From positions 32,731 to 96,730 of the forward strand of contig CAVOWE010000018.1 of the NCBI GenBank assembly GCA_963700035.1: a stretch of 64,000 nucleotides of DNA. Direction: 5' to 3'. A program made the position numbers and the translations under genes. Below the pieces are notes generated by a model that searched no databases, was not told where the DNA came from, and was given only the letters and a program-made list of their open reading frames with translations. Positions 1-59,764 of this stretch are shown here, piece by piece (within the stretch, counting starts at the first letter, position 1; the number at the start of each line of letters is the position of its first letter). The stretch comes from an uncultured Thermoleophilia bacterium. GTDB taxonomy: Bacteria; Actinomycetota; Thermoleophilia; UBA2241.

Positions 1-992
1 ACCGCCCAGTTGGGGTACAGCGCAGCGAGCTCCGTATAGCTCGTGACCTCCGTCCCCGCGAAGGAGATGGGAGTCGAGAAGTTCGGGATCGCGTAGCTGA
101 CGCCCACGAGCAGGATGAAGCCGGCGATCATCGAGACCCAGATGGACCGCACGATGCCCTTCGCCGCCTGGACGTTGGCCGATATCGTCTCCTCGGACAC
201 GTGGGCCGAGGCGTCGTAGCCGGTGAACGTGTACTGGGCGTTCAGCATGCCGAGAGCGATGATGTAGAGCGGCACCGTCCACCCCGAGAGCCCCTTGAAC
301 GCGTTCCACCCCTCGCTCCCGAACATGAACGAGACCGAGTTGTGGGTCGAGCCGTCGGCGGGCCCCCAGTACAGGATGGACGACGATGATCGCGACACCG
401 ATGAGGTGCCAGTAGACCGAGACGTCGTTGAGCAGGGCCACCAGGCGGACGTTGAAGGTGTTCAGGAGGCCCTGCAGGAAGAGGATGACGGCCAGGATGC
501 CGAGGACGTGCCCGGGCGAGAGCCAGTACACTTCGCCGGTCAATTCGGCAAGGAGGGCCGCGACCATGAGAACGCGCAGCCGAAGCTGATGCCGGCCGTG
601 ACGGCGACCTGCCCCAGCAGGTTGAACCAGCCGGTGAACCACGACCACCAGGGCCCGCTCTTGCCGGGCGCCAGCTTGGCCGACCAGTAGTAGAGGCCGC
701 CGGCCGTCGGGTAGGCCGAGCAGATCTCGGCCATCGACAGGCCGGCGAAGATGACCATCACGCCGACGAACAGCCAGCCCCAGTTCATGACCGGCGGGCC
801 GCCGTGGTGCAGGCCGTACTGGTATACGGTTAGGCAGCCCGACAGGATGGAGATGATGGTGAAGGAGATGGCGAAGTTGGAGAAGCCGCTCATCTTCCTG
901 TCGAGCTCTTGGGCGTAGCCCATCTCGTGGAGGCGTTGGGTATCCTCGTCTACTTGTTGGACCGGTGGTGATGCGGAGCCCTGTTCGACCAC
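1..992 (-). pseudogene. APC-superfamily amino-acid/choline-type permease. The 3' end lies beyond the window start. The frame is broken twice as sequenced.
   Basis: ORF 540..992 gives a typical APC N-terminus (FSNFAISFTIISILSG, AYPTAGGLYYWSAKL, FNLLGQVAVTAGISFG). Manual minus-strand translation continues the protein in other frames (LMVAALLAELTGEVYWLSPGHVLGILAVILFLQGLLNTFNVRLVALLNDVSVYWHLIGV, then ILYWGPADGSTHNSVSFMFGSEGWNAFKGLSGWTVPLYIIALGMLNAQYTFTGYDASAHVSEE). This implies frame changes near 570 and 378. Confidence 0.8.
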
Positions 993-1162
993 GTTAACCC
1001 CCCCCTGTTCGACGACGCGTCCAACGGACGCATGACTTGAATGCCATTTAGTACGAGCGAGCCATCGAAGTCAAGGGTCTTGGGCTCGCGGGGCTGCGAG
1101 CGAACGTGCGTGCGCGTCGCACTGCAGCCTGAGCGCGCCCCCGCCCCTCGCAGATCGGCCCC

Positions 1163-1795
1163 CTACTTCCCCAGCAGCGCGTCGATCTTCTTGACCCCGT
1201 CGCTGGCGTCCTCGGCGTAGGCGTCGGCGCCGATCTGGTCGGCCCAGCGCTGCGTGCAGGGGGCGCCGCCGACCACGGTCTTGTAGGCGAGGCCCTCGTC
1301 CTTCACGGTCTTGATGACCTTGCGCTGCTCCTCCATGGTGGTGGTCAGCAGGGCGCTCATGCCGATCACGTCGGCGTTCTCCTCCTTGGCCCTGGCGATG
1401 AAGCTCGCCGCGGGCACGTCGCGGCCGAGGTCGCTGACCTCGTAGCCGTTGGCCTTGAGGTAGGCGATCACGATGGCCTTGCCGATGTCGTGCACGTCGC
1501 CCTGCACGGTGCCGATGACGATGCGCCCCTTGACCTCGGCGGCCTCGCCCTCGAGGGCGGCGTTGGTCACCTCGGTGGCCCCGGCCATGGCGTCGGCGCT
1601 CATCATCAGCTCGGGGAGGAAGAGCTCGCCGGACTCGAAGAGCTCGCCGACCTCCTGGATGCCCTTGACGAAGCCCTTGGCCATGATCTCGCCGGGGGCG
1701 ATGCCCTGGTCGAGGGCGCGCTGCGCGACCTCTTCGGCGGCGGCGCGGTCACTGGTGATGATCGCCTGGGCTGCTTCTTCGTAGATGTCGGCCAT
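1163..1795 (-). CDS. Cobalamin-binding corrinoid protein of a methyltransferase system (MtbC/MttC/MtmC-like)
   Basis: 210-aa ORF with the B12-binding DxHxxG signature (GDVHDIGK), followed by MSALLTTT and VVGGAP. It has an N-terminal helical cap region. The stop codon is TAG. Confidence 0.9.
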   Translation of the reverse strand: MADIYEEAAQAIITSDRAAAEEVAQRALDQGIAPGEIMAKGFVKGIQEVGELFESGELFLPELMMSADAMAGATEVTNAALEGEAAEVKGRIVIGTVQGDVHDIGKAIVIAYLKANGYEVSDLGRDVPAASFIARAKEENADVIGMSALLTTTMEEQRKVIKTVKDEGLAYKTVVGGAPCTQRWADQIGADAYAEDASDGVKKIDALLGK

Positions 1796-2043
1796 GCCTT
1801 GGACTCCTCTCCCCGTTGTGCGGGCACAAGCCCGCCTGTCCGTCGCCGTATATCTCTCGCGCGCGCATGGAGCGTGGTCCGCGCCTGCCGGCCTCTACCC
1901 ATTGCCGGCCGATGGTCGTATAGTCTGAGATGCGCTGCTCCGGACCGCGCTCCACCTCTTCGGGAGCTGCGCAGCTCGTCGGGCGTTGCGGCGTGCGGCA
2001 GTCAAACTAGCACGTTCGCGCACGTTATCAAACAAAGTCGCAC

Positions 2044-2071
2044 TTGACGCCGCGCCAGTCGAGCCTATGAT
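2044..2071 (+). promoter_or_regulatory. Candidate sigma70-type promoter (TTGACG, 16 nt spacer, TATGAT)
   Basis: TTGACG at 2044..2049 and TATGAT at 2066..2071 lie in a locally AT-richer patch of the 640-nt divergent intergenic region. If used, it implies a leader of about 360 nt before the ATG at 2435. Confidence 0.3.
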
Positions 2072-2434
2072 GAGCTTTGATTTTGTTCGATTCTGCCGAT
2101 TCGGGAATCACGTGGGGGGCAGTGCTCGAACCACTCTCATCGTTTGAGGCACATGGCACGGAGTCGTCCGCCGGTCGAGGACGTCGCGACCTACCGCGCC
2201 CCAGCCTCCAGCCACCCCATGTCACCGCACAAGACGACCGCCACGGTGCGCGCTCCGGGCGGCCGCTCTCGACTGCCACCCGGATGCCCGGGTCGCACGC
2301 GAGACGGCCGTCGGCTTGCTGCGCCCACCCGGACGGCCCGCGCAGCCGCGGGGCCTCATGGAGCACCCTCCGGTGCTGAAAGGAGCGAGACGACACATGG
2401 ATACACACGTGAGCGCAGGGCGAAGGAGGCCGAC

Positions 2435-3383
2435 ATGAGCGTGCGGCTCTTCTTCGCCACGGACGTGCACGGCTCGGAGGCCTGCTGGCGGAAGTTCATC
2501 AACTCCGGCAAGCACTACGAGGCAGACGTCCTCATCCTCGGCGGCGACATGACCGGCAAGGCGGTCGTGCCGATCATCGACAACGGCGGCGGCAAGTACA
2601 CGTTCCACATGCAGGACGTGCGTCGCGACATCGACGGCGCCGACGCGCTGGCCGTCGATCAGCGCGCGATCCGCGATCACGGCTACTACCCCGTGGTCAT
2701 GACTCCCGAAGAGAGAAACGAGTTCACCAGCGACCCCGACAAGCTCGACGAGCTCTTCCACGCGCAGATGCGCCGCACCGTCGAGGAGTGGGTCGCCTGG
2801 GCCGACGAGCGTCTGGCCGGCGGGAACATGCGCTGCATCGTGTGCCCCGGTAACGACGACCGCCCCGACATCGACGAGACTGCTCGCCACTTCTTCGCAG
2901 ATCGAGCTCGGCGAGGGCAACGTCATCGACCTGCCCGAGGGGTACCAGCTCGCCTCCAGCGGCTGGACCAACCTCACGCCCTGGGACACGCCGCGCGAGG
3001 AGGAGGAGCCGGCGCTCAAGGCGCGCATCGAAGGCATCGTCGCGCAGGCCACCGTGAGCCCCGACCGCCTCGTCCTCGGCCTGCATTGCCCACCCTACGA
3101 CACGCAGCTCGACGTGGCGCCGAAGATCGATTGGGAGACGCTCACGGTGAAGGGGCAGGACGTCGCCCATGTAGGCTCCACCGCCGTCAAGGAGGTGATC
3201 GAACAGGTCCAGCCGATCCTCTCGCTCCACGGGCACATCCACGAGAGTCGCGCGGCCGTGCGCATCGGGAGCACGCTCGCGATCAACCCCGGGAGCTCGT
3301 ACGTCGAGGGCACGCTGTCCGGCTGCATCGTCGAGCTCGACGGCAAGAAGAAGCTGAAGCGCTACAGGCTCACGATGGGGTGA
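2435..3383 (+). pseudogene. Calcineurin-like metallophosphoesterase with one frame change as sequenced
   Basis: GAAGGAGG RBS lies 5 nt upstream of the ATG at 2435. Motifs present are FATDVHGS, GGDMTGK, CPGNDD and LHGHIHES. The frame switches from frame 2 to frame 0 near 2879 (DIDE / LLATSSQIELGEGNVIDLPEGY). Confidence 0.8.
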
Positions 3384-3465
3384 GGGTGACTTCGAGCCTG
3401 CTGTAAGTGGGGGGACGGCGCTCTTGTTGTCGTCCGGAACCGTTTTGTGTCAGGAGGTTGCGTCT

Positions 3466-5221
3466 ATGGCGACCAATGCGCCAGAGCAAACGCTCTTCGT
3501 GCGAAAAGCAAGTGGTCTTGTCAAAGGCTGGTCGAGTGGGGACGGCTTCCGCTACTCGTTCTTCTCGGTCAACCTGTTCCTCGCGATCTGGTCGATCTCG
3601 TACGCCACATTCATCCCGGGTGGCAGTCTGTTCTGGTCGATCGTCATCACCGCGGCGTTCATCATCCTCGAGATCATCGTGTACGCGGGTCTCATCTCGG
3701 CGATGCCGCGCGCCGGTGGCGACTACGTGTGGATGACGCGTATCTTCAACAGCGCGATCGGCTTCATCATCGCCGCTGTAGGCTGGTGGTTCATCCTCTG
3801 GCTCTGGACGCCGATCTACGCCGACATGGGCGTCCAGACCACGGTCAAACCGATCTTCCGCATCCTCGGCCTCAATGGGGCGGCAGATTGGCTGGGTACC
3901 CGCACGGGCATCTTCGTGGCCTCGCTGGTGGTCATCGCCATCGCCTCGACACTCGTGGCCGTAGGCATGAAGACCTATGCCAAGTTCCAGAAGTGGGCGA
4001 TGTGGATCGGCCTCGCCGGCGTGATCATCTGCGGCATCCTGCTGCTCGTCACCTCCGGTGCCTCCTTCAAGGAGAAGTTCAACGCCGCCGCCGAGAAGTA
4101 CTACGGCGGCGACAATCGGCACGCTCAATCTCACAGAAGTACGAGACCGACGAGTCCGGCTACTTCGTCTACGACGACGACGGTCTTGCCATCAATACCG
4201 TGGAGGGCGAGACCTACCCCGACGCGTTCGCGGCGGTCGAGGCGGTCGGCTCGGGTACTGGCATGCCGACGTCGACCTTCGCCGGTGGCCTGAGCTGGGC
4301 CACCTGGACGCTCATCCCGTTCATGATGTTCTGGATGGCGTGGCCGAACTGGGGGGCGACGCTGTACGGCGAGGTCCGAGGGGCCAAGGACTTCCGCAAG
4401 AACATCTACATGATGCTCGGCGGGCTCCTGGTGCCGACGGCCATCACCTTGGCCTTCCTGGGGTTGATGACCTGGAAGGTGGGCTACCAGGCGTTCATGG
4501 GCATGATGGCCTCGTGGTGGTACTACTCCACGGCGGGTACCAACATCTCGCCGATCGGTGGCGACTACATCTCGCCGACGGCGATGATCTCCTGGATCGT
4601 CCCCAACGCGGCGTTCCAGATCATCCTCATCGCCGGCATCTCGCTGCTGCTCTTCGGCTGGTTCGGCACGCTCTTCCTCTCGTCGACGCGCATGATCTTC
4701 GCGTCCGCGTTCGACCGCATCCTGCCTGAGGGCGCGGCGAAGGTGACCTCCGGCGGCGTGCCGGTCGTCGCCCTTGTGCTGATGACCATCCCGTCGATCA
4801 TCATGGCGGCGCCTCTACGCCTACACGCCGATCGATGCCGAGAAGGGCGTCACCATCGTCAAGCTGTTCACCTACGACGCGACGGTGGGCATCCTGATCA
4901 TGTTCCTGGGCTCTGCCCTCGCCTTCATGATCATGAAATGGCGGGCGCAAGAGCATCTGGGACAGCTCCTCGCTGCCCAAGAGCGGCATCGCCGGCATCC
5001 CCTGGATGTCCATCATCGCCGCAATCTACTCGGCGTTCCTGGTGTTCAACCTCTACCTGTTCGTCACGGACGCGCTCTACGGCGTGAACAACTCGAAGTC
5101 CGCCATCTTCATGGCGATCCTGTACGTGGCCGCGCTCGTCATCTGGATCATCGCCTGGGCGACGCGCAAGCGCCAGGGCATGGCCCTCGAGGCGGTCGCC
5201 AAGGAGATCCCGGTCGAGTAA
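3466..5221 (+). pseudogene. APC-superfamily permease with three frame changes as sequenced
   Basis: AGGAGG RBS precedes the ATG at 3466. Multi-TM APC-like sequence (MPRAGGDYVWMTRIF, MFWMAWPNWGATLYGEVRGAKDF, LFLSSTRMIFASAFDRILPE) can be followed through frames 1, 0, 1 and 2, with switches near 4117, 4810 and 4945. The gene ends at a TAA at 5219. Confidence 0.8.
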
Positions 5222-5264
5222 GGGACGCTCCTAAGCACCACAGACACCGGTCGCTTCGACGGTA

Positions 5265-5300
5265 CCGGCGGCGGCCCGGCCTTGGCCGGGCCGCCGCCGG
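5265..5300 (+). terminator. GC-rich perfect hairpin downstream of the permease gene
   Basis: CCGGCGGCGGCCCGGCC pairs with GGCCGGGCCGCCGCCGG (about 16-17 bp). No clear U-tract follows. Confidence 0.45.
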
Positions 5301-5347
5301 GTCTGTGAGACAGAGAGAACGACGCGAGCAAAGGAGGCCGCGCATTC

Positions 5348-6751
5348 ATGAAGATCTTGACGCGAATGGGCGACAGCTCCAACGTGGAACTCACGCTGGA
5401 CGAGCTGCGCAGAGAGTTTGAGGAGGGATCGGAGTTCGCCGCCAAGAAGGCCAAGGTCCCGGTCCTCACGGAGAACGAGGTCGACTACCTCGTCGACATG
5501 TTCGCCGCCCCCACGCGCATCTGGGGCTGCCAGCGCGGCAACGAAGTCGTGATGACCAAGGACGGCTGCGTCAACGCGCTCAACTCCTCGCGGATGTCGA
5601 GCGGCGTGGTCGCGCCGGTCAACCGCGAGGTCGGCGTGCGCCTCTTCGAGTCGATGCTCGGCTTCGACTCCATGGAGGTCTCGCACAACGACTACTCGGT
5701 GAAGCCCCAGCGGTTCCTCAAGGCGCTCGAGATGCTCCACGTCGAGCTGCTCATGGAGACGACGATCTTCCCGCTCCTCTACGGCTTCATGCCGAACCTG
5801 GGGCTGTACTACCGCCCGGACGGGTCGTTCGAGAACCCGAGCGACCTCATGCCGTTCGGCAAGATCGCCGAGGCGCGCAAGACGCAGGAAGAGGCGGGCG
5901 AAGCCTGTCTCGCGGACTGCATCGAGATGAGCGACTGCATGGTCGAGATGGGCGCCGACGGCATCGACTTCGACACCGTCGCGTCCACCGGCGACGCCGA
6001 GTTCTACGCCGTCCTCAAGGCCTGCGATCACGTCGCCAACGAGACCGGCCTGCCGGTCGAGATCGGCATGTCGGCAGAGATGGTGCTCGGCTTCCACGGC
6101 GAGCTCGAGTACAACGGCAAGCGCCTCGCCGGCATGTGGGCGCACGAGCAGCTGCAGATCTGTGAGGAGGCCGGCTGCGCCATCTTCGGCCCGGTCTCCA
6201 ACACCAACACCAGGAAGACCGTCCCGTGGAACCTCGGCAAGGCGCTGACCTTCATCAAGGCCTGCACCGAGATCGCCAAGATCCCCGTCCACCCCAACGT
6301 GGGCATGGGCGTCGGCGGCGTGCCGATGTTCGAGACCCCGGCCGTCGACGTCGTGACGCGCTGCAGCGCCGCGATGATCGAGATCGGCAAAGCGGACGGG
6401 TTGTAGGTGGGTACTGGTGACCCCGCCGGCATGCACATCGCGCATCTGCTGGCCTCGTCGATGGGTGGGATCCGGGCCGCCGGAGATCTGGTGGCAAGGA
6501 TGCAGCTCAGCAAGAAGATGAGGATCACGGAAGCCAAGCAGTATGTGGCCGACAAGCTCCACGTGACGCCGCTCGACCTGTCCGACCCGACGATGATGCG
6601 CCAGCTCCGCGAGGATCTGGACATCGGCGTGATCACGGGCGTGCCGGGCATCGCCAAGGGCCTCGCAGCCAAGGCGCGTATCGCCGAGCTGCTCGACATC
6701 GAGATCAACTGCGTCGAGCAGTTCAAGAAGAAGACCGGGCTCCACTACTAG
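5348..6751 (+). CDS. mtbB: Dimethylamine:corrinoid methyltransferase MtbB homologue, 467 codons including one in-frame UAG (predicted pyrrolysine)
   Basis: AAAGGAGG RBS precedes the ATG at 5348. ORFs 5348..6406 and 6407..6751 share one frame and are separated only by the TAG. Strong resemblance to remembered MtbB blocks ([83 protein letters not shown]). Confidence 0.9.
6404..6406 (+). other. In-frame TAG, predicted pyrrolysine (recoding) codon of mtbB
   Basis: Context is [26 protein letters not shown]. As I recall, archaeal MtbB reads VDGI-Pyl-IGVGDPLGMPIAHIM at this point. The protein arithmetic (352 + 1 + 114 = 467) matches canonical MtbB length. Confidence 0.85.
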
Positions 6752-6762
6752 GAGGCCCGCGA

Positions 6763-6800
6763 GGGCGGCCCTGGCGCCCTGCAGCGCGTCAGGGCCGCCC
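6763..6800. terminator. Hairpin between convergent mtbB and the kinase gene
   Basis: GGGCGGCCCTG (6763..6773) pairs with CAGGGCCGCCC (6790..6800), with a 16-nt loop. Confidence 0.4.
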
Positions 6801-6820
6801 GCTTCAGGCGCGAGCGGTGC

Positions 6821-7747
6821 TCACACCGACTCGAGCCACGCCTCGTAGTCGGCGTTGGCGGCGTTGCTCTGGAAGCGCCGCATGCGGTTCATGCCGTACT
6901 CGTAGAAGTCGAAGTCGAGCTTGGACACGCTCGCCTGGATCATCGCCCAGATGCTCCACCACAGGTCGGCGACCAGCTTGTGCAGCTGCATGCGCGCGTA
7001 GCGATGCTCGTCCATGCCGCCGCAGTAGGCGCTGAGCACGAGCTTCTCCTCGGCGACGCTGAGGGGATGTTCCACGCAGAAGTCGCCGAGGTCGAAGTAG
7101 GGGTCGGTCATGCCGCCGTACTCCCAGTCGATGATCCACATCTTGCCGTCGGGCGCCAGGAGGAAGTTCTCGCTGAGCAGGTCGTTGTGGCAGGCGGTGA
7201 AGGCCGGTGCATCGCGCTCCAGGGCCGGCTCGATGCGCCGGCCCTGCTCGAGCATCCAGTCGAGCTCCGCGGGATGCCGCGCGTTCACGTCCTGCGCCAT
7301 GCGCAGGTAGTCGCGGATCATGTCGAAGAGGCGGATCTCGTTGTCGAAGACCGCCTTCTCGTGATAGGTGCGCATCGCCGCGACGATCTTCTCGAGGCGG
7401 TCGGGGTGGCCGGCGAGCGACTCGGGGTGCATGGTCTCGCTCTGGATGAACGGGACCACCGTGCAGTCCCCGGGCTGGATGACGTGGAGCAGCGGCGGGG
7501 TGACCCCGGTGGCGGCCGCGGCGGCGTGGTTGTGCAGTTCGCGGGTGCGGTCGATGAAGGTCTCCGTACCCTCCCCGGGGATGCGCAGCACGAACCTGCC
7601 GACGCCCGCGGCGCCCGGCTCCCCGTCGACGGTGACGAGGTAGTTGCGGTTGGTGATGCCGCCGCCGAGCACCTCGCAGCGGACATCCTTGCCCCGCCAG
7701 TCGTCGATCCTCGCGATCACGTCCTCGGCGCTGATGGGCTCAGTCAT
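6821..7747 (-). CDS. Choline/ethanolamine kinase-like phosphotransferase (APH/ChoK fold)
   Basis: 308-aa ORF with GGITNRNY, the Brenner motif CHNDLLSENFLL and the ChoK-type IIDWEYGG. Confidence 0.85.
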   Translation of the reverse strand: MTEPISAEDVIARIDDWRGKDVRCEVLGGGITNRNYLVTVDGEPGAAGVGRFVLRIPGEGTETFIDRTRELHNHAAAAATGVTPPLLHVIQPGDCTVVPFIQSETMHPESLAGHPDRLEKIVAAMRTYHEKAVFDNEIRLFDMIRDYLRMAQDVNARHPAELDWMLEQGRRIEPALERDAPAFTACHNDLLSENFLLAPDGKMWIIDWEYGGMTDPYFDLGDFCVEHPLSVAEEKLVLSAYCGGMDEHRYARMQLHKLVADLWWSIWAMIQASVSKLDFDFYEYGMNRMRRFQSNAANADYEAWLESV

Positions 7748-7775
7748 GTGCGTTCCTTCGTTCGCTCGATTGCGA

Positions 7776-7833
7776 CGAAAACGGCCGGGGTCCCTCGCGC
7801 CCCCGGAGGAGCATATGCGAGGGACCCCGGCCG
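7776..7833 (-). terminator. Intrinsic terminator after the MtmB-family gene
   Basis: A perfect 17-bp stem (7782..7798 pairs with 7817..7833) is followed on the minus strand by TTTTCG. Confidence 0.65.
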
Positions 7834-7852
7834 CGTCAGCTTGTCGCCGCGG

Positions 7853-9235
7853 TCAGGAGACCGGCACCTCGAGGCCCATGCCGGCGAGGTCGCTGCGCAC
7901 GTCGTCCATGGCCTTCTGGTACTCGCTGTTCACGATCCGCTTGGTCTTGGCGTCGTAGACCTCCTGGAAGGTCATGCCCTTGTCGGGATCCTTCAGCTTG
8001 TCGCCGAAGAGCGGGAAGATCTTCTGCGCGATGGGTTCTGCCTCGGCGCGCGTCAACTTCGCCGTCGCCAGGCCGATCTCGGCGTGGAACTTGTGGTCGT
8101 CCGGCACCAGCGAATCGGACTGCACCGACATGGCCGGGTGCCCCGAGAAGATGTTGCCGCCGGAGGTCACGATGGCGAGCAGGTAGCAGGCCATCTCGTA
8201 GTGGTACTGCTTGGTGCCGGAACCGCCTCCGAGGTATGGCAGGTTGACCATCGGGTAGCCCATGTTGCGGCCGATGGCGGCGTTGCTCATGGCGATCGCC
8301 CAGATGAGCGGCTTGGTCGACGAGAGGTGCAGCTTGCTGTGCAGCGGCGCGTTGTAGTGGTAGCTGCCGCGGAAGATCAGGTTGCCCATGATCATGTAGC
8401 AGGTGGCCGTGACGGCGACGCCCTCGGCGCCGCCGGCGTAGCCGCCGAAGAGCGGCGTCGAGGTGGAGCCGATGTTGGCGCTGATGCTGTTGTAGAAGGC
8501 GACCTTCTGCAGCGCCTCGTAGCCCACCACCATCTCGGAGAGGAAGTCGATGAGGAAGCCGTCGCTGGGGCGCAGGCCGAAGGCCGGGTAGCTGGCGGCG
8601 AACATCGAGGCCGGCTGGGAGGCCGCGGAGATGCCGTTGATGATCGGCAGGCCCGCGCGGCCTGAGCGGCGGATGCCTTCGCGGGCGAGGCGCACGGTCT
8701 TGCAGGCCGCGAGGATCTCCTGCGGCGAGCGCACGCGCGAGTCCTTGCCGCGCAGATGGAGGATCGACGGTACGCTGACCGAGTCGACGATGTTGAACGA
8801 CGCCATCTTCTCGACGGTGTCCATGTACACTTGCTCGTCGGTCGTGTAGATGCCGCCGCCGACGTGCACCCACGGCCGGTCGTCGGTGGTGTCGGGGCGC
8901 CGGCCGTGCATGGTCTTGCGCTCGCGGCCTTCGCCGAAGGTCGTGGCCTTGGGCGCCTGCGAGCAGGCGAGCAGGATCTCGTCGCGCGTGAACTGCATCA
9001 CGCGGTTGGTCTCGGGGCAGTACGCGCCGGCCTCGGCGAGGAGGTCGACGGCCGCCTGGAAGACGCGGTCGGTGAGGTCGTCGTCGGTGTTGATGATGGT
9101 CTCTTTGTCCCACTTGACCTGGTGGCGCGCGATCACCTCGGTGAGCGTGGGGACGTAGCGCTTCATGTAGTAGTCGGTCTCGGAGGTCAGCGGCCCGACT
9201 TCGGCGCGGTCGAATACTTCGATCAGGTCGATCAT
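7853..9235 (-). CDS. MtmB-family (monomethylamine methyltransferase-like) protein, uninterrupted, with no in-frame UAG
   Basis: 460-aa ORF with a GAGGAG RBS. It resembles remembered MtmB blocks: FDRAEVG (MtmB YDRAKVG), PLFGGYAGGAEGVAV (PIFGGYAGGIEETTIV), and the C-terminal KGMTFQEVYDAKT...LAGMGL (GKTFQECYDVKT...LEDLGL). The region SGRAGLPIINGISAAS aligns to MtmB AGRPGMGV-Pyl-GPETSLS. Confidence 0.8.
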   Translation of the reverse strand: MIDLIEVFDRAEVGPLTSETDYYMKRYVPTLTEVIARHQVKWDKETIINTDDDLTDRVFQAAVDLLAEAGAYCPETNRVMQFTRDEILLACSQAPKATTFGEGRERKTMHGRRPDTTDDRPWVHVGGGIYTTDEQVYMDTVEKMASFNIVDSVSVPSILHLRGKDSRVRSPQEILAACKTVRLAREGIRRSGRAGLPIINGISAASQPASMFAASYPAFGLRPSDGFLIDFLSEMVVGYEALQKVAFYNSISANIGSTSTPLFGGYAGGAEGVAVTATCYMIMGNLIFRGSYHYNAPLHSKLHLSSTKPLIWAIAMSNAAIGRNMGYPMVNLPYLGGGSGTKQYHYEMACYLLAIVTSGGNIFSGHPAMSVQSDSLVPDDHKFHAEIGLATAKLTRAEAEPIAQKIFPLFGDKLKDPDKGMTFQEVYDAKTKRIVNSEYQKAMDDVRSDLAGMGLEVPVS

Positions 9236-9283
9236 GTCGTTCTCCTCAAGATGCGGGTTCGGCGGTCGGCTGCGAGGCGCCGG

Positions 9284-9931
9284 TCAAGACACCAGCTTGG
9301 TGGCCAGGACGACGGCATCGTAGGCGCTGCCGCTCCATCCGTCGGCGCCGATCGTGTCGGCCCACTCCTTGGTGGTCGCGCCGCCGCCCACGATGACCTT
9401 GTACTTGTCGCGGGTGCCCTGGTCCTTGAGCGCGTCGATGACGTCCCGCTGGCCGATGAGCGTCGTGGTGAGGAGAGCCGAGATGGCGATGATGTCGGCG
9501 TTCGTTTCGTTGGCCTTGTCGATGAACTTGAAGAGGTCGACGTCGATGCCGAGGTCGTGGACCTCGAACCCGGAGGTCTCGAAGAGGAGCTTGAGGATGT
9601 TCTTGCCGATCGAGTGAAGGTCGCCCTTCACGGTGCCGATGACGATCGTGCCCTTCTTCTCGTCGGCGCCACCGGCTTCCTTGATCTTGGGCTCGAGCAC
9701 GGTCATGGCCGACTGGAAGGCCAGAGCGGCCTGCATGAGCTCGGGGAGGAAGATGTCTTCGCACTCGAACTGCTCGCCGATGACGTTCAGCCCCGGCAGC
9801 AGGCCCTTGTCGATGACCTCGCGGGGGTCCATCCCGTCGGCCAGGGCCTTGTTGACGGCCTCGAGGACGGCGTCCGGATCCTGGTCGACGATCGACTGCT
9901 TGAGCTGTTCGTGCATGGTCTCGTTTCCCAT
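9284..9931 (-). CDS. Cobalamin-binding corrinoid protein (second copy)
   Basis: DxHxxG signature GDLHSIGK, followed by ISALLTTT and IVGGGA. The ATG at 9931 has a GAAGGGG RBS. The ORF track starts at a GTG at 9940. Confidence 0.9.
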   Translation of the reverse strand: MGNETMHEQLKQSIVDQDPDAVLEAVNKALADGMDPREVIDKGLLPGLNVIGEQFECEDIFLPELMQAALAFQSAMTVLEPKIKEAGGADEKKGTIVIGTVKGDLHSIGKNILKLLFETSGFEVHDLGIDVDLFKFIDKANETNADIIAISALLTTTLIGQRDVIDALKDQGTRDKYKVIVGGGATTKEWADTIGADGWSGSAYDAVVLATKLVS

Positions 9932-10012
9932 TACGTGCACCCCTTCTTGTCGTGTCTGGATGTGATCGTGAAGATCGTGGAGTACGGCGTCGGCGCCGCG
10001 GGGCGGGCGCCG

Positions 10013-11473
10013 CTAGGCGTCGCCCCCGGCCTCGACCCAGGTGGCTTCGCCGGCGACGAGGCCGGGGAACTCGGCGCGGATCTGCGCGTCCAGCTCGGGC
10101 GCCCAGACGGCCGGGTTCGGCTGCGACAGGAGGCCGCGGGCGAAGGCGCGCGCGCGGCTCTGCGCGTCCGGCCGTCCGGCCGCCTCCCATTGCGCGCGCA
10201 TGCCGCGGTCGGCGACCTTGGGGAAGACCGCGGTGGTCTTCATCAGCGACTTGGTGTGCTTGCTCTTCATGAAGTCGCCGCCCGGTCCCACCTGGGCGAT
10301 GACCTCGAGGGCCAGGTTGTCTTCGCTGAACTCCAGGCCGCGCACGACGCGCTTGTTCATGAGGGCGATCTCGTCGTCGACCACGGCCTTGCCGAAGTCG
10401 AACGCCATGAGCGAGCTGAACAGGCCGCCCATGTTGAGCAGCGTGGCGCCGGCGAGCACCGCGCCGAGCGTGTTCATGCCGGTCTCGTAGCCCGACTGCG
10501 CGTCGTTCGAGTGCGCGTTGGTGAGGCCGATGTAGCCGCCGGTCGGGACGTTGTAGAAGTGCCCGAGCTGGGCCTGGGCCATGCAGAGCATGCCGGTCTC
10601 GATGGCGCCCGGGGCGTAGGCCCCGGTGCGCATGTCGGCGACCGTGGGCAGGCTGGCGTAGATGATCGGCGTGCCTGCCCTGACCATCTGCTGGAAGACG
10701 GTGATGGCGAGGAACTCGGCGTTGCCCACGATGAGCGTGCCCATGAGCGTCATCGGCGAGGTGAGGCCGGCGTTGGGCACCACGGTCGTGTACACGGGCA
10801 GGCCGCGCTCGGTGAGATACATCACCGCTTCCGTGGAGTCGACGTCCATGGTCAGCGGGCTGACCATCGGGCAGTAGTGATGGTTGATGATCGGCCGCTC
10901 GCGATAGGCGTCGGCGCCGCCGGCGATGAGCTCGCCGAGCTTGAGCACCTGGCGCAGGTCGTCCATGTTGGGGGTGTTGCTGCGCACCGGCTTGAGGCAG
11001 TTCTTGAGCGCCGGGTAGAAGCGGCTGAGGCTGAACTGGCCGGGGGGCGCGTCGTCGGCGAGCGTGGAGATCGAGAAGATGTCGAAGCCCTTGAGCTCGT
11101 TGATGAGGTGGGCGATGTTGGCGATGTCGGTGGAGGTGGCGCGGCGCTCGACACCGGTCGCGGGGTCGACCACGTTGGGCGCGGAGCTGCCGGTGACGAC
11201 CACGGGCCCGCACTCGGGGATCGTGCGGTCGAACTGCGGGTCGCGGCCGCGGAAGGTGAAGCTCGTCGGGCAGACTTCCAGGTACTTGCCGATCACTGCG
11301 GGGGGGAACTTGACGAGCCCATCGGCGTCGACGCTGCAGCCGTGGGCCTTGAAGACCTCGCGGGCGGGCCCGTGGTGAGCCAGGATGCCGACGTTCTCGA
11401 GGACCCACAGCGACGCTTCGTGGACTCGCTCGACCTGCTTGGCGGTGAGTAGCTCAACGTGCTTCATGTGCAT
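10013..11473 (-). CDS. MttB-superfamily (trimethylamine methyltransferase family, COG5598-like) protein, non-Pyl
   Basis: 486-aa uninterrupted ORF with family-typical blocks (LTAKQVERVHEASLWVLENVG, HHYCPMVSPLT, GPGGDFMKSKHT). It sits directly downstream of the DeoR gene and upstream of the corrinoid gene. The stop codon is TAG. Confidence 0.85.
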   Translation of the reverse strand: MHMKHVELLTAKQVERVHEASLWVLENVGILAHHGPAREVFKAHGCSVDADGLVKFPPAVIGKYLEVCPTSFTFRGRDPQFDRTIPECGPVVVTGSSAPNVVDPATGVERRATSTDIANIAHLINELKGFDIFSISTLADDAPPGQFSLSRFYPALKNCLKPVRSNTPNMDDLRQVLKLGELIAGGADAYRERPIINHHYCPMVSPLTMDVDSTEAVMYLTERGLPVYTTVVPNAGLTSPMTLMGTLIVGNAEFLAITVFQQMVRAGTPIIYASLPTVADMRTGAYAPGAIETGMLCMAQAQLGHFYNVPTGGYIGLTNAHSNDAQSGYETGMNTLGAVLAGATLLNMGGLFSSLMAFDFGKAVVDDEIALMNKRVVRGLEFSEDNLALEVIAQVGPGGDFMKSKHTKSLMKTTAVFPKVADRGMRAQWEAAGRPDAQSRARAFARGLLSQPNPAVWAPELDAQIRAEFPGLVAGEATWVEAGGDA

Positions 11474-11494
11474 CAGATCCTCTCAGTCGGATTC

Positions 11495-12280
11495 TCATAC
11501 AGCGACCACCCGCAGGCCCCGCCGCAGCATCTCGTCGCGCACGTCGTCGTCGACGCCGTCGTCGACGACGACCGCCTGCACGTCGTCGAGGGTACAGATG
11601 ACGAAGTCGCCGACGACGCCGATCTTGCTGCCGTCGGCGAGGACGATCACCTCGCCGCGAGTCTGGCGGATCATGGCGCGTTCGACGCCGGCGAGGCCGA
11701 CGCTGGCGGTGGTGATGCCCTCCTCGAGGCTGACACCGTCGGCGCCGAGGATGAACTTGGAGGCGTGGAAGCCGCTGAGGACCTCCAGCGACAGGGCGCC
11801 TTCGAGCGTGTTCGAGCGTGGCCGGTAGAGGCCGCCGAGGAGGATGACGTCCAGCGCCTTCTCCTGGGCCGAAGACACGGCGCCGAGGTTGTGCGTGACG
11901 ATGCGCGCGTGAAGGTCGGGGTCGACGTGTGAGAGGACCTGCGTGGCGGTGGTGCCCGAGCCCAGGAACACGGTCTCGCCCGGCTTGATCATGGCGGCCG
12001 TCGCCTTGGCGATGCGCTGCTTCTCCTGCGCGTGCGCGCGCACGTTCGTGACGTAGCGCGGCTCCTCGACGATGTGCTGCTTGAGGAGGGCCCCGCCGTG
12101 GGTGCGCGAGAGCAGCCCCTCGGTCTCCAGACGTTCGAGGTCGCGGCGGATGGTCATCTCGGAGACGCCGAGCAGGTCGCTCAGCGCGGAGACGCGCACG
12201 CCACGCTGTTCGGCGAGTATCTCCAGGATGCGACCCTGCCGTTCGGCCGGGAACATCTCGCGCATGTCTGGCGACGACAT
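11495..12280 (-). CDS. DeoR/GlpR-family transcriptional regulator
   Basis: HTH region (ILEILAEQRGVRVSALSDLLGVSEMTIRRDLERLETEGLL) plus a DeoR C-terminal sensor domain. Alternative in-frame starts lie at 12265 and 12322. Its stop is 21 nt before the MttB-family start. Confidence 0.85.
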   Translation of the reverse strand: MSSPDMREMFPAERQGRILEILAEQRGVRVSALSDLLGVSEMTIRRDLERLETEGLLSRTHGGALLKQHIVEEPRYVTNVRAHAQEKQRIAKATAAMIKPGETVFLGSGTTATQVLSHVDPDLHARIVTHNLGAVSSAQEKALDVILLGGLYRPRSNTLEGALSLEVLSGFHASKFILGADGVSLEEGITTASVGLAGVERAMIRQTRGEVIVLADGSKIGVVGDFVICTLDDVQAVVVDDGVDDDVRDEMLRRGLRVVAV

Positions 12281-12434
12281 CGAGCTCCCCAAAGGCTGTG
12301 ATGTGTTGTCAGAATCGCTCATAATCGAACGCTGTCCTGCAATTCTCAGGCTGGAGCCGGTGAATGTCAAGTGTTCTGGCGTGTGCGAGTCTGTTTTTGC
12401 GTGGGAGAACGTTGCCGCCTGCACGCGCTCACGA

Positions 12435-12468
12435 GAAAGGCGGCGGGCCGTGAGGCCCGCCGCCTTTC
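12435..12468 (-). terminator. Perfect 15-bp hairpin downstream of cydB
   Basis: GAAAGGCGGCGGGCC, loop GTGA, GGCCCGCCGCCTTTC. Confidence 0.55.
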
Positions 12469-12501
12469 GCCGGTCGGTGTGGGGAAGACGGTGCGGCCGC
12501 G

Positions 12502-13521
12502 TCAGTACTCCGCGTCGGCCGCCTTCGTCTTGCCCCTGAAGGTCCTGTAGACGAGCGCCGTGTACGCCAGGACGATCGGGCAGAAGATGAGCGCGATGAC
12601 GAGCATGACCTGCAGCGTCAAGCGTCCGGAGGCGGCGTTGGTGACCGTCAGGCTGGTCTCGGGCGGCGTGCCCCGCGCCGGCACGATCTCGGGGAAGTTG
12701 CCGACCGCGGCGATGCCGGCCAGGGCGATGATGGTGACCGCCGAGCCGAGGAAGGACTTGAGCTCGGCACCCTCCTTCGTCATCTGCCAGATGGTGTAGA
12801 GCAGCGACAGCGCGAGGAGGACGAGGAAGAACCAGCCGAGCGGCCGGCCGAACACGTTGTCCGACGCGCGCGAGACCGTGACGATGGTCGCGACGGAGGT
12901 CGCGACCGCCAGCACCACGCACACCCAGAAGGAGATCTTGCGGTACTGCAGCGCGCGGGCGTGCAGCGCGCCCTCCGACTTGAGCGCCACCCAGGCCGCG
13001 CCGTGTGTGACGATCAGGAACAGGCCGGTGACCGCCACGAGCAGGGAGTACGGGTTCAGCAGTTGCAGGAACGTGCCCGTGTAGTCGCCGTTGGCGTTCA
13101 TCGGGACGCCGCGGATGACGTTGCCCAGGGCGCAGCCGACGAGGATCGCCGGCACCAGGCTGCCGAGGAAGAAGGCGCCGTCCCAGACCCTGCTCCAGTT
13201 CTCGTCACGATGGCGGAACTCGAGCGAGACGGCGCGCAGGATCAGGCCGAACAGCACGAGCATGATGGCGAGGTAGAAGCCACTGAACGTCATCGCGTAG
13301 ACCATGGGGAAGGCCGCGAACACGGCGCCGGCGCCGGTCACCAGCCAGACCTCGTTGCCGTCCCAGATCGGCCCGATCGAGGCGCGGACCACGCGCTTCT
13401 CGTCCTCGGTCCTGGCGATGAAGGGGTAGAGGACGCCGGCTCCGAGGTCGAAGCCGTCGAGGACCACGTAGCCGGTGAGCAGGAAGGCGACCAGGAAGAA
13501 CCAGATGTTCACGAGGCTCAT
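12502..13521 (-). CDS. cydB: Cytochrome bd ubiquinol oxidase subunit II
   Basis: 339-aa polytopic ORF with the typical N-terminus (VVLDGFDLGAGVLYPF), immediately downstream of cydA. Confidence 0.9.
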   Translation of the reverse strand: MSLVNIWFFLVAFLLTGYVVLDGFDLGAGVLYPFIARTEDEKRVVRASIGPIWDGNEVWLVTGAGAVFAAFPMVYAMTFSGFYLAIMLVLFGLILRAVSLEFRHRDENWSRVWDGAFFLGSLVPAILVGCALGNVIRGVPMNANGDYTGTFLQLLNPYSLLVAVTGLFLIVTHGAAWVALKSEGALHARALQYRKISFWVCVVLAVATSVATIVTVSRASDNVFGRPLGWFFLVLLALSLLYTIWQMTKEGAELKSFLGSAVTIIALAGIAAVGNFPEIVPARGTPPETSLTVTNAASGRLTLQVMLVIALIFCPIVLAYTALVYRTFRGKTKAADAEY

Positions 13522-13525
13522 CTCG

Positions 13526-14890
13526 TCACCTCCCCGCGCCGACGGGAGCGGGCTGCGCGGAGGCCCGCTCGGCCTCCAGCATCTCGACGACGTCGTCCGG
13601 GCCCTTGCGGATGATCCCCAGGAAGATCCGCAGCCAGGCGATGAACAGGATCAGGTAGATGAGGCCGAACAGGCCGAGCGTGGTCCAGACTTCGCCGGCG
13701 GAGACCGTCGGCGAGACGCCGTCGGTGGTGCGCAGCAGGCCCTGGACGATCCAGGGCTGCCGCCCCACCTCGGTGGCGGCCCAGCCCATGTTGATGGCGA
13801 TGAGGGGGAGCGGGAAGCACACGACCAGCAGCCACAGCAGCCAGCGCGCCTTCTCGAGGCGCTTCAGGAAGTGCATGACGAGCGCCAGCAGCATCACCCC
13901 GATGAACACGAACGACAGGGCGATCATCAGATGGTAGCTCTGGAAGGTGATCTGAGCCGGGGGCCGGTCGGCGGGCGGGACGCTGTCGAGGCCCTTGACC
14001 ACGCGGTCCGGGCTGAGACCCAGCATGAGGCTCAGGCCGCTGGGGATGCTGACACCGGTCGTGCCGCCGTCGCCGTTCACCCAGCCGAAAAGGTACAGCG
14101 GCGCGTTCTTCCGCGTCTCAGTGAGGTTCTCGAAGGCCGCCATCTTCACCGGCTGATACTCTTCGACTACCAGCGCGTGCCAGTGACCGATGAAGGGCAT
14201 GGCCGCCGAGGCGAGGAGCCCGACGACGAGCGCGGTGACCAGCGCCTGGCGGGCGAAGTGCAGGTGGCGCTTCTTGAGCAGGTACCAGGCGCAGATGCTG
14301 GCCACGACGAAGCATCCGGCGATGACGCAGGCCACGATGGTGTGCACGTAACGCGGCGGGAAGGACGGGTTGAGGGCGGCGGCCCAGAAGTCGGTGAGGA
14401 TGGCCCGGCCGTCCTCTATGGCGTAGCCGGCCGGGGTCTGCTGCCAGGAATTGGCGATGAGGATCCACACCGCCGACAGCAAGGTCCCGATCATCACGAG
14501 CCACGCCGAGGCGTAGTAGAAGCCTTTGGAGACCTTCTTGCGGCCGAACAGCAGCACGCCGAGGAAGGTCGACTCGAGGAAGAAGGCGAGAAGGCCCTCA
14601 GCCGCCAGGGGCGCTCCGAAGATGCTGCCCACGAAGCGCGAGTAGTCCGCCCAGTTGGTGCCGAAGGCGAACTCCATGGTGATCCCGGTGGCGACCCCGA
14701 TGGCGAACGTGGTCGTGAAGAGCTTGATCCAGAAGTTCGAGGCCGCCTTGTCGGCGGGGATGTTGCTCTTGTAGTAGCGCCGCTCGGAGAACACGACCAT
14801 GAGCGCCAGGCCGATGCTGATGGGCACGAAGATGAAGTGATAGCCCACGGTGAACGCGAACTGGATACGGGAGAGCATCAAGGCGTCCAT
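13526..14890 (-). CDS. cydA: Cytochrome bd ubiquinol oxidase subunit I
   Basis: The start was chosen at MDALMLSRIQFAFTVGYHFIFVPISIGL (ATG at 14890). The longer ORF reaching 14974 adds an Arg-rich non-protein-like extension. Confidence 0.9.
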   Translation of the reverse strand: MDALMLSRIQFAFTVGYHFIFVPISIGLALMVVFSERRYYKSNIPADKAASNFWIKLFTTTFAIGVATGITMEFAFGTNWADYSRFVGSIFGAPLAAEGLLAFFLESTFLGVLLFGRKKVSKGFYYASAWLVMIGTLLSAVWILIANSWQQTPAGYAIEDGRAILTDFWAAALNPSFPPRYVHTIVACVIAGCFVVASICAWYLLKKRHLHFARQALVTALVVGLLASAAMPFIGHWHALVVEEYQPVKMAAFENLTETRKNAPLYLFGWVNGDGGTTGVSIPSGLSLMLGLSPDRVVKGLDSVPPADRPPAQITFQSYHLMIALSFVFIGVMLLALVMHFLKRLEKARWLLWLLVVCFPLPLIAINMGWAATEVGRQPWIVQGLLRTTDGVSPTVSAGEVWTTLGLFGLIYLILFIAWLRIFLGIIRKGPDDVVEMLEAERASAQPAPVGAGR

Positions 14891-15000
14891 GCGTGTCCGC
14901 CACCTCCTGGGAGAGCGTGTGTTTCCCGCCTGCGCGCGACACCCCCGGTCACTGCGCGAACGGCTTGGCGACACTTATTTTCACTGTCGGTGTAGTGTCA

Positions 15001-15030: not shown

Positions 15031-15164
15031 AGCGGGCCGACGGCGAGCTGAATAGAAAGTATTAAGCGCAGGTTAAGCAGCCTGTTCAGGCCCCGGGAGC
15101 CTGTGCTACCATGCGCGAGGGCCGGCACCGATCGCCGGCCGTTCTGCTGTAGGAGGCTGAGGCT

Positions 15165-15515
15165 TTGTCTGAAGAACTGCTCGAATGCACAGAATGCTCG
15201 GCACAGTGCGAGAAGGTCGTCTACCCGGCGGCTTGTCTCAGCATGAACTGCCGTTTTCTCTACGCTTTCAAGGAAGACGGCGACACGTTCTTCGGGTGCA
15301 TCGAGAAGGTGTTCCCGCACGAGATCGACCTCAAGATGTTCGAGGACATCGAGCGCGGCAAGGGCGGGTTCGGCGTGGTCAAGGTGGTCCGCACCCCGTT
15401 GCCGCAGTGCTCGGTGGCCGTGCAGAGCTGCTACGCCTCCGGTGAGGGGCCGCTCTGCCGCAACATGTACTTCCGGCGCCGCGACCGGCGCGAGGTGCAG
15501 ACGGTAGAAGATTGA
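15165..15515 (+). CDS. Small cysteine-rich hypothetical protein (116 aa, 9 Cys)
   Basis: AGGAGG RBS lies 8 nt before a TTG start. Includes a CxxC and further Cys residues (ECTECSAQCEKVVYPAACLSMNC...). A clean intrinsic terminator follows. Confidence 0.6.
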   Translation: MSEELLECTECSAQCEKVVYPAACLSMNCRFLYAFKEDGDTFFGCIEKVFPHEIDLKMFEDIERGKGGFGVVKVVRTPLPQCSVAVQSCYASGEGPLCRNMYFRRRDRREVQTVED

Positions 15516-59751: not shown

Positions 59752-59764
59752 CGGGTGGCTCCTT

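Follow-up and report, generated by a model that had tools for sequence, protein, structure and literature searches.

A gene cluster joining a pyrrolysine-type MtbB to pyrrolysine-free MttB- and MtmB-family methyltransferases and a choline kinase in Thermoleophilia

The DNA considered here is a stretch of 64,000 nucleotides from a bacterium of the class Thermoleophilia (assembly GCA_963700035.1, contig CAVOWE010000018.1, positions 32,731 to 96,730 of the forward strand), called the window throughout; its host is a soil or sediment actinobacterium. At its start lies a gene cluster in which the three methylamine-methyltransferase families, MttB, MtbB and MtmB, form one conserved unit of which only MtbB depends on pyrrolysine (Pyl), as the initial annotation of the window had proposed: the core of the cluster is present at 35 of 35 loci compared, and Leu and Ile stand at the Pyl positions of the other two enzymes. 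We read the region, with about even confidence, as a DeoR-controlled, corrinoid-dependent catabolic cluster for N-methylated amino-alcohol (choline-type) compounds, in which the Pyl-type MtbB would act at the dimethylamino stage.

Gene content and conservation of the cluster

The gene map was obtained from the listing of open reading frames (ORFs), third-position GC plots and profile searches (Pfam, NCBIfam/TIGR), and all the genes that had been claimed for the cluster were found in their places. A minus-strand operon is headed by a DeoR/GlpR-family regulator gene (11495-12322; HTH_DeoR and DeoRC domains), followed by a Pyl-free MttB-family methyltransferase gene (10013-11473; PF06253, 273.5 bits, residues 3-468 of 486), the gene of corrinoid protein A (9284-9931; B12-binding and B12-binding_2 domains, its best NCBIfam match, to the MtgC type, reaching 224 bits and so staying under the cut-off) and a Pyl-free MtmB-family methyltransferase gene (7853-9235; PF05369, 230 bits, residues 2-455). 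This order agrees with the one first described, with the correction that the operon is closed by a further gene, that of a LicA-type choline/ethanolamine kinase family protein (6821-7747; PF01633, 108 bits), which sits three genes downstream of the MttB-family gene. On the plus strand are a metallophosphoesterase-like gene (2435-3383), the gene of APC permease 2 (AA_permease_2; 3466-5221) and mtbB, which encodes a pyrrolysine-type dimethylamine (DMA):corrinoid methyltransferase (5348-6751). The minus strand also carries the genes of an MtbC-like corrinoid protein B (1163-1795; B12-binding and B12-binding_2 domains, TIGR02370 pyl_corrinoid at 223 bits against a cut-off of 215.3, MtbC at 217 bits) and of APC permease 1 (amino acid/choline transporter type; 1-992), the latter running off the window start, with matches of AA_permease_2 and TIGR00907 to its N-terminal 150 aa. 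The DxHxxG motif is visible in the translations of both corrinoid proteins (GDLHSIG and GDVHDIG).

Related loci and contigs from metagenomes and metagenome-assembled genomes (MAGs), labelled L001, L007 and so on, were compared with the window. A scan for relatives with one genome per species returned 80 loci. The majority are MAGs of Thermoleophilia/Actinomycetota recovered from soil, peat and lake sediment; the others belong to Desulfobacterales, Syntrophales, Desulfohalobiaceae, Chloroflexota and Spirochaetota. Genes were counted with the cluster proteins as probes over the 35 Thermoleophilia/Actinomycetota species loci with enough flank. The genes of DeoR, the MttB-like protein, corrinoid protein A and the MtmB-like protein were each found at all 35 loci, and an APH-type kinase gene lies between those of DeoR and the MttB-like protein at 33 of them. 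The neighbourhood that the initial annotation had expected to be conserved in relatives, with kinase, phosphoesterase and permease next to the methyltransferase genes, is indeed so, the choline kinase being present at 30, permease 2 at 29 and the phosphoesterase at 27 of the 35 loci. An mtbB gene with an internal TAG is present at 25/35, the remaining 10/35 showing the core without mtbB within the fetched flank, and corrinoid B at only 3/35. The commonest layout is a single co-directional operon in the order DeoR, APH, MttB-like, corrinoid, MtmB-like, choline kinase, phosphoesterase, permease and mtbB. In the sub-lineage to which the window belongs (L011-L013, L016, L081 and L084), the APH gene is lost, the phosphoesterase-permease-mtbB block is inverted and corrinoid B lies beyond the block; this gene order is reproduced, at 98.5% identity, in the independent short-read contig L001. 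Corrinoid A is directly upstream of the MtmB-like gene in 80/80 related loci, and the corrinoid and MtmB-like pair is the unit that is invariant across phyla. Since the cluster recurs in dozens of species-level genomes, the co-occurrence of the families is far above chance.

The MttB-like and MtmB-like enzymes both lack Pyl. The MtmB-like protein aligns with the solved MtmB1 (1L2Q) over residues 3-455 with an E value of 8e-44, having Ile199 in place of Pyl202 and no in-frame stop, and in the MttB-like protein a Leu aligns with the Pyl of MttB (7XCL). The MtmB-like clade, which has hundreds of close metagenome relatives, is compact, with at least 55% identity within it and at most 39% to the next relatives in a library of 1.84 billion representatives. 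The MttB-like protein scores 356.9 bits against TIGR02369, below the cut-off of 525, and is closest among solved structures to MtgB (231 bits), followed by MttB (192 bits). The residues of MtgB that bind betaine, Y97, R312, H348 and F356, are known from mutagenesis and a ligand-bound structure, and the Arg at position 312 is reported to be conserved in MtgB, MtcB, MtpB, MtyB and MthB (PMC13080624). Ser, Gly, Asn and Leu, respectively, take their places in the window protein and in 52/53 MtmB-linked homologues. Judged from these alignments, the MttB-like protein is a separate subfamily, because it lacks the Arg reported as conserved in all characterised Pyl-free MttB enzymes. Three further Pyl-free MttB paralogues are found elsewhere in the window, at 49152-50612 (+), 58285-59764 (-) and 59838-61186 (-), the last two split by frame breaks; they share about 30% identity with the MttB-like protein of the cluster, have no adjoining corrinoid gene and are neighboured by a LarA-like gene, WYL-domain regulators and alanine-racemase-N-like genes.

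The UAG codon of mtbB and the source of pyrrolysine

By the combined sequence criteria, the in-frame UAG of mtbB (6404-6406, plus strand; context GGG TTG TAG GTG GGT) is read through and decoded as a sense codon. The Dimeth_Pyl profile (PF09505) matches both sides of it, with 408.5 bits upstream and 168.6 bits downstream, and the TAG falls exactly on profile position 354, the matches running to position 353 before it and from 355 after it. The two pieces of TIGR02368 (326.8 and 148.3 bits) add up to 475 bits against a cut-off of 369. The TAG is kept in 28/28 mtbB orthologues, in the context EIG(K/H/G)ADGL-TAG-VGTGDP, and MtbB homologues in the databases all end at 352-353 aa, that is, at the TAG. 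The dN/dS ratio, taken over 23 distinct orthologues, is 0.17 in the part after the TAG and 0.23 in the part before it, which indicates purifying selection on both parts. An RNA element of the PYLIS_2 type (Rfam RF02509; 6404-6503, plus strand) begins at the TAG itself, with 64.2 bits against a gathering score of 36 and an E value of 3.8e-13. In the consensus fold of 27 orthologues 98.7% of cells are paired, and five pairs are changed on both sides; the swaps, CG/AU/UA and GC/CG, lie in the hairpin at about 6476-6495 and fall on synonymous third positions. This covarying fold is supportive rather than decisive, because it was derived from the same sequences.

UAG would not be reserved for Pyl in this organism. 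The 34 confident genes of the window end in TGA (23), TAG (10) or TAA (1), the TAG-terminated ones including corrinoid B, the MttB-like gene and mtbB itself; UAG is therefore both a common stop and a Pyl codon here. The double use of UAG, as Pyl codon and as ordinary stop, is the usual situation in Pyl-decoding bacteria. No solved structure was found for MtbB. The cluster-type MtbB forms a group of its own, with at least 80% identity within it and about 65% to MtbB of the canonical context. MtbB homologues outside the cluster type are also found at high GC, as in the 67% GC soil contig L094, where a TAG-type mttB (LLPSWVAGA-TAG-GDAKLGD), a TAG-type mtbB, a Pyl-free MttB gene and two corrinoid genes lie within 7734-14389; canonical Pyl-dependent modules for trimethylamine (TMA) and DMA thus also occur in high-GC soil bacteria. 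In Stordalen Mire, Actinobacteriota MAGs have been reported to express mttB and mtbB of the Pyl type (PMC10805028), and two of the loci compared here, L021 and L041 (bog_752), are Stordalen Mire MAGs.

As first noted, no gene for the second methyltransferase (MT2), RamA, pylS/B/C/D or tRNA-Pyl was found in the 64 kb window. Around the cluster, neither pylS nor tRNA-Pyl was found within 10 kb in any relative, as searched with ARAGORN on 60 loci and by tblastn with Methanosarcina mazei PylS against 1.39 Mb of loci, and the same distance around the nearest non-cluster MtbB homologues, in L094 and L095, is likewise free of pyl genes. The gaps in L030, considered as a possible place for pyl genes, hold only transaldolase, aminotransferase and transketolase genes. 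A protein-database search with the PylSc of D. hafniense was uninformative on Thermoleophilia, the matches listed all being from Firmicutes. When the PylS motif RPMLAPNLY, back-translated for high GC, was used to scan contigs from metagenomes, at least 120 contigs were found, and among the matches listed 90 have a GC content of at least 64%.

These contigs link pyl genes to the corrinoid protein B of the window. Orthologues of corrinoid B (81-99% aa identity) occur on at least 18 high-GC contigs about 100 bp from pylSc, in convergent orientation. In L200, which comes from the same JGI sample as L001, a stretch 99.47% identical to window positions 1157-1535 is followed by pylSc (TIGR02367, 312 bits, cut-off 178), so that the sample of L001, which holds the cluster of the window, also yields a pylSc contig. 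The contig L178 carries pylSc, the corrinoid gene, pylSn and tRNA-Pyl(CUA), and L187 carries pylB (441 bits), pylC (338 bits), pylD (204 bits), tRNA-Pyl, the corrinoid gene and pylSc; a full set (pylB, C, D, T, Sn and Sc) is thus present in the lineage beside corrinoid B orthologues and absent from the window. In L192 and L206 the corrinoid B orthologue lies between a TAG-type mtbB and pylSc, and because mtbB, corrinoid gene and pylSc adjoin there, corrinoid B is best read as a probable MtbC-type partner of MtbB. The similarity between L200 and the window stops six bases past the corrinoid stop codon, which suggests that the genome probably holds two copies of corrinoid B, or that strains differ in arrangement. 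A gene of 295-369 aa (L199, 195-1082; L178, 5317-6204; L187, 7905-9014), weakly similar to B12-binding radical SAM proteins, is the divergent neighbour of the MtbC-like corrinoid gene inside the high-GC pyl region. A survey of 2022 recorded PylRS in only two Actinobacteria genomes (PMC9630628). Pyl decoding, thought to be rare in Actinobacteria, appears to be widespread in the high-GC Thermoleophilia of soils, peat and lake sediments.

The substrate of the cluster and its alternatives

Corrinoid methyltransferases can demethylate a positively charged nitrogen unaided, and uncharged tertiary, secondary and primary amines need pyrrolysine for the formation of a charged adduct, as in MttB, MtbB and MtmB; the point is discussed in PMC13044021. 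In the choline-type reading, the permease would import the substrate and the LicA-type kinase would make its phosphate ester, as MthK does for MthB; the MttB-like and MtmB-like enzymes would then demethylate the charged quaternary stage, loading the shared corrinoid A (9284-9931). The Pyl-type MtbB is placed at the dimethylamino stage because this uncharged stage chemically needs pyrrolysine, and together with corrinoid B (1163-1795) it would take either free DMA or a dimethylamino intermediate, while the metallophosphoesterase would remove or release the phosphate. The methyl-corrinoid would be discharged to tetrahydrofolate by a methyltransferase encoded elsewhere, and the Pyl would come from a pylB-C-D-T-Sn-Sc locus at another place in the genome, beside another corrinoid B copy. 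DeoR-family regulators usually sense phosphorylated metabolites, and the presence of one here fits a phosphorylated effector. What we infer in this scheme is which substrates are used, in what sequence the steps follow, what the phosphoesterase does and how the corrinoid proteins pair with the enzymes.

The initial annotation had suggested a phospho-headgroup or a choline-derived amine as feedstock, and for this idea published precedents exist. In E. limosum, MthK phosphorylates choline and MthB demethylates the phosphocholine to dimethylaminoethanol (DMAE)-phosphate (PMC12155760), and MtqB, a Pyl-free MtmB homologue, demethylates choline and tetramethylammonium (PMC13044021); a second methyltransferase that is unlinked and shared has a precedent in aerobic bacteria (PMC12478193). 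A DMAE-phosphate:choline phosphotransfer has also been seen for MthK. For the window a substrate of this kind would be assigned by analogy.

The kinase is one of the links to such a substrate. It matches the solved structures PDB 3DXQ, from the choline/ethanolamine kinase family (143 bits), and 4R77, the choline kinase LicA of S. pneumoniae (89 bits), and both a Brenner motif, HNDLLSENF, and a choline-kinase motif, IIDWEYGGMTDPYFDLGDF, are visible in the translation. Orthologues with 46-48% identity stand beside the corrinoid/MtmB-like pair in Desulfohalobiaceae, together with an OpuAC-type betaine/choline ABC transporter and RamA, and the pairing of kinase and MtmB-like gene is also found in Spirochaetota-like genomes, making three phyla in all. 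In Desulfobacteraceae a pterin-binding MT2 gene lies between the MttB-like and corrinoid genes; an intervening MT2 is seen in L069 and L066. In L092 (6177-11383; 34% GC) an MtmB-like paralogue, accompanied by a corrinoid gene, lies on either side of a choline kinase gene; this system has methyltransferases of the MtmB family only and stands beside the acetyl-CoA synthase/CODH (Wood-Ljungdahl) genes and a RACo activase. A second, paralogous set is seen in L014 (11437-15922; also in L021, L037, L039, L040, L048, L050 and L061), made up of a choline kinase, a gene of 265 aa, a phosphoesterase and a permease (about 41% and about 26% identical, respectively) and sometimes a second DeoR gene; kinase, phosphoesterase and permease therefore behave as an uptake and activation module that can be duplicated.

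Several observations weigh against the choline-type reading. The assignment to choline is made by association; the Arg that binds the acidic group is absent from the MttB-like protein, and a phosphorylated substrate is not obviously favoured for this enzyme; MtbB scores as an ordinary DMA methyltransferase. The APH kinase gene that adjoins the MttB-like gene in 33/35 relatives has been lost from the lineage of the window, and the phosphoesterase and both permease genes are frameshifted in the assembly. Of the functions that had been proposed for a search beyond the window, pyl genes were located on contigs of relatives (L200, L178, L187), but MT2 and RamA were found neither in the window, nor within 10 kb of the cluster at any of the Thermoleophilia loci, nor on the high-GC pyl contigs; the RamA probes matched only loci from outside Thermoleophilia (L068, L073/L093, L086 and L092) and lower-GC pyl contigs. 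The MttB-like/corrinoid/MtmB-like core of Desulfobacterales and Syntrophales lies next to a dimethylglycine-dehydrogenase-like DAO-GCV_T gene without the kinase, which hints at other substrates in these groups, and in some Thermoleophilia the core adjoins GCV_T and SHMT genes.

The last two observations speak for a reading in which the core would have glycine betaine or related N-methyl amino acids as its substrates (betaine, dimethylglycine, sarcosine) and the kinase would be unrelated to them. MtgB as the best solved match of the MttB-like protein, at 231 bits, the MtgC type as the best NCBIfam match of corrinoid A, and the neighbouring genes (DAO-FAO_M-GCV_T in Desulfobacterales and Syntrophales, GCV_T and SHMT in some Thermoleophilia) all point in this direction. 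We nevertheless give it little credence, given that all four betaine-binding residues of MtgB are replaced (52/53 linked homologues), that the scores stay below the curated cut-offs and that choline-kinase orthologues recur beside the MtmB-like gene in three phyla.

The initial annotation had also seen in the three families a mirror of the cascade from TMA through DMA to monomethylamine (MMA), with Pyl-free paralogues taking the TMA and MMA steps. One member of each family is present, but this proposal does not stand up well and we consider it hardly credible. Pyl is replaced by Leu and Ile in the enzymes of these two steps, the cluster has no Pyl-type MttB for the conversion of TMA to DMA, and the high-GC relatives that use TMA retain a TAG-containing mttB (L094); for the use of simple methylamines neither the conserved kinases nor the phosphoesterase nor the DeoR regulator is needed. 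The substrates of all characterised Pyl-free members of the families are quaternary amines and not TMA or MMA, and TMA is not used by MtgB (PMC13080624; PMC12155760; PMC13044021).

The strongest rival to the choline-type reading is the juxtaposition of two independent modules, a Pyl-free one for quaternary amines (DeoR, MttB-like, corrinoid A, MtmB-like and kinase) and an ordinary one for DMA (permease 2, MtbB and corrinoid B), which would share regulation or location with no substrate chain between them, MtbB using free DMA from the environment. This is a possibility that we hold tentatively. MtbB passes the equivalog model of DMA methyltransferases when its halves are summed; in other high-GC lineages (L094, L192, L206) mtbB is paired with Pyl-type mttB, corrinoid genes and pylSc, without the kinase; the phosphoesterase-permease-mtbB block moves among relatives as a unit, inverted in the lineage of the window; and ten of the 35 relatives, as said, show the core without mtbB in the fetched flank. 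On the other hand, mtbB in most relatives is directly downstream of, and co-directional with, the kinase, phosphoesterase and permease genes, and it has there no corrinoid gene of its own (corrinoid B 3/35), which suggests that a shared corrinoid protein is used; furthermore, the cluster-type MtbB forms its own sequence group, and no linked gene would provide it with DMA, as one for a Pyl-type MttB could.

A stronger form of the choline-type reading is a complete, stepwise and corrinoid-dependent N-demethylation of (phospho)choline to (phospho)ethanolamine, in which the Pyl-free pair would act on the phosphorylated quaternary stage and MtbB on N,N-dimethylaminoethanol(-phosphate) rather than on free DMA. 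We regard this as distinctly improbable. If true, MtbB would be the first Pyl enzyme to act on a substituted amine, and the MtmB-like proteins the first Pyl-free MtmB clade to depend on a kinase, in a pathway that would run in oxygen-tolerant soil Actinomycetota using UAG both as Pyl codon and as a frequent stop. The choline-type reading in its general form would leave the known chemistry of these enzymes unchanged, its substrate assignments being inferred. Pyl-free MtmB homologues were orphans until 2026, and the link to the kinase gives a concrete substrate hypothesis for the bacterial clade. In most relatives the three methyltransferase families are grouped in one operon with a single corrinoid gene, which makes them a test bed for the question of why pyrrolysine is needed for some methylated amines and not for others. 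In soils, peat and lake sediments, the turnover of choline and methylamines bears on methane precursors and on the nitrogen cycle.

Integrity, genomic setting and comparison with known systems

The phosphoesterase and the two APC permeases named in the initial annotation are present, but all three genes are frameshifted in the assembly and intact in relatives. In permease 1, six-frame translation reveals two frame breaks at about 330-540; its orthologues follow the same corrinoid B gene in L081, L016 and L009. The phosphoesterase gene has one break near 2880, due to one extra base in comparison with L007, and the L008/L007 orthologues match it in two frames (tblastn); the intact orthologue has weak Metallophos and Metallophos_3 matches, and only weak matches to solved structures, aq_1956 and Rv0805, were obtained; for the APH kinase there was no useful match. 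Permease 2 is broken near 4114, 4137, 4812 and 4949, with three frames matched (tblastn); compared with L010, a short-read contig in which the gene is intact, it carries four insertions of 1 nt. The stretch is 91.5% identical to L010, whereas MtbB is identical. In the closest relatives with the same gene order (L013, L016 and L081) the phosphoesterase and permeases are intact, L081 being the closest MAG (CAVXXF01; MFD04716.bin.1.399).

Such breaks could mean that the cluster is decaying in this strain, the phosphoesterase and permease genes being real pseudogenes and the pathway partly non-functional, a situation that would be compatible with the other readings and that we think unlikely. Seven breaks are concentrated in 1-5300, against none in 5348-15000, the same genes are intact in L010, L013, L016 and L081, and the lineage no longer has the APH kinase. 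However, breaks also occur in other genes of the window, namely in those of a sensor kinase (near 16.9 kb) and of an ABC/MFS protein (29375-31942), both otherwise well conserved, and in the two split MttB paralogues (59-61 kb), and the breaks in permease 2, all single-base insertions within a strain-variable stretch, look like consensus error. Part of the relatives are long-read metagenome assemblies with Flye-style contig names, and because the related contigs come from long-read soil metagenomes we lean towards assembly or consensus error as the cause of the breaks.

The cluster does not occupy a fixed site. Its chromosomal position differs between genomes, and in many relatives, as in L007/L008 (5280-16821), the whole 11.5 kb cluster is inserted between the PcsB-like and HAD hydrolase genes. 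In the window these two genes overlap by 4 bp (34923-34926), so that the site is empty, and the cluster is found at a distance of 20 kb, next to cydAB and tmRNA. From the occupied and the empty site it follows that the cluster has moved within Thermoleophilia genomes. The GC content is about 70% across the window and 64-69% in its first 16 kb; the overall GC of the cluster region is lowered, at 0.64-0.69 against about 0.71. Composition was considered as evidence of horizontal transfer and rejected as such, as the GC content at third positions (GC3) is not lowered: it is as high in the cluster as in the rest of the window, so that composition by itself does not show a recent transfer. Mobility is better evidenced by the changing place of the cluster on the chromosome. 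The 5.5 kb contig L023, labelled Deltaproteobacteria MAG248, has 92% protein identity to the Thermoleophilia cluster and is probably a mis-binned actinobacterial contig rather than a recent transfer.

Promoter-like sites were found by consensus match upstream of the plus-strand genes (2044-2071, plus strand; 10/12 positions, a match to the consensus only) and, in a consensus scan, upstream of the DeoR gene (12370-12342, minus strand). The flank beyond DeoR, which is not part of the system, contains cydB and cydA of cytochrome bd oxidase (12502-14974, minus strand; typical CydB/CydA translations) and the tmRNA gene (15624-15983, plus strand; ARAGORN, and Rfam RF00023 at 150 bits), and it is the same in L012, L013, L016, L017 and L081. 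Between cydA and tmRNA, at 15153-15515 on the plus strand, there is a cysteine-rich ORF of 120 codons with coding-like third-position GC and without a Pfam match.

Among characterised systems, the MthK/MthB/MthC/MthA system of E. limosum (Jiang et al., 2025; PMC12155760) is alike in having a kinase of the choline-kinase/APH superfamily beside Pyl-free MttB and corrinoid genes, and in the logic of phosphorylating the substrate and then demethylating it; kinase and MttB are reported to co-localise in many bacteria (PMC12155760). Its published distribution covers Firmicutes and Deltaproteobacteria, whereas the cluster described here is from Actinomycetota. The MttB-like protein of the window differs from MthB, with which it was compared by published description, in its Gly at the position of MtgB R312; the cluster adds a Pyl-free MtmB homologue, a Pyl-type MtbB, a phosphoesterase and a permease, and it has no counterpart of the linked MthA, a pterin-binding MT2 having been found neither in the window nor within 10 kb at the Thermoleophilia loci. 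The MtqB/MtqC pair of Methanococcoides methylutens (Kashyap et al., 2026; PMC13044021) likewise combines a Pyl-free MtmB homologue with an adjacent corrinoid protein, MtqB demethylating quaternary amines. MtqB, which has a conserved Met-Cys pocket, is, however, archaeal, feeds coenzyme M (CoM) and has no kinase, while the MtmB-like gene of the window is regularly linked to a choline kinase; because the nearest relatives outside its own bacterial clade are at most 39% identical, the window protein is probably not an MtqB orthologue.

The MtbB/MtbC and pylTSBCD system of Methanosarcina, Desulfitobacterium and other bacteria shares with the window the in-frame UAG, the PYLIS_2 match and an MtbC-like corrinoid protein, and the pyl set of the lineage has the split pylSn/pylSc found in Pyl-decoding bacteria. 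It differs in that the host here is a high-GC Thermoleophilia bacterium with an adjoining cytochrome bd oxidase, in that mtbB is embedded among kinase, phosphoesterase, permease and Pyl-free methyltransferase genes and not with mttB/mtmB, and in that neither RamA nor MtbA/MtgA is linked to the mtbB of the window. The MtgB/MtgC/MtgD system of aerobic marine bacteria (Mausz et al., 2025; PMC12478193) also couples an MttB-family enzyme with a corrinoid protein in a bacterium that is not strictly anaerobic, and also relies on a second methyltransferase that is shared rather than dedicated and in-cluster; in contrast, its substrate is glycine betaine, its MtgC belongs to a distinct lineage, and MtmB-like protein, MtbB, kinase and Pyl are all absent from it.

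Pyl-type mtbB and Pyl-free mttB have already been noted in Actinobacteriota by survey papers. Four features appear to be undescribed in the searchable literature: the three-family operon with two kinases, phosphoesterase and permease; the link in three phyla between a Pyl-free MtmB clade and choline kinase; the Arg-less MttB subfamily; and the pyl genes beside an MtbC-like corrinoid gene in Thermoleophilia. Seen against the known systems, the cluster is a new arrangement of known enzyme families, not a new kind of system.

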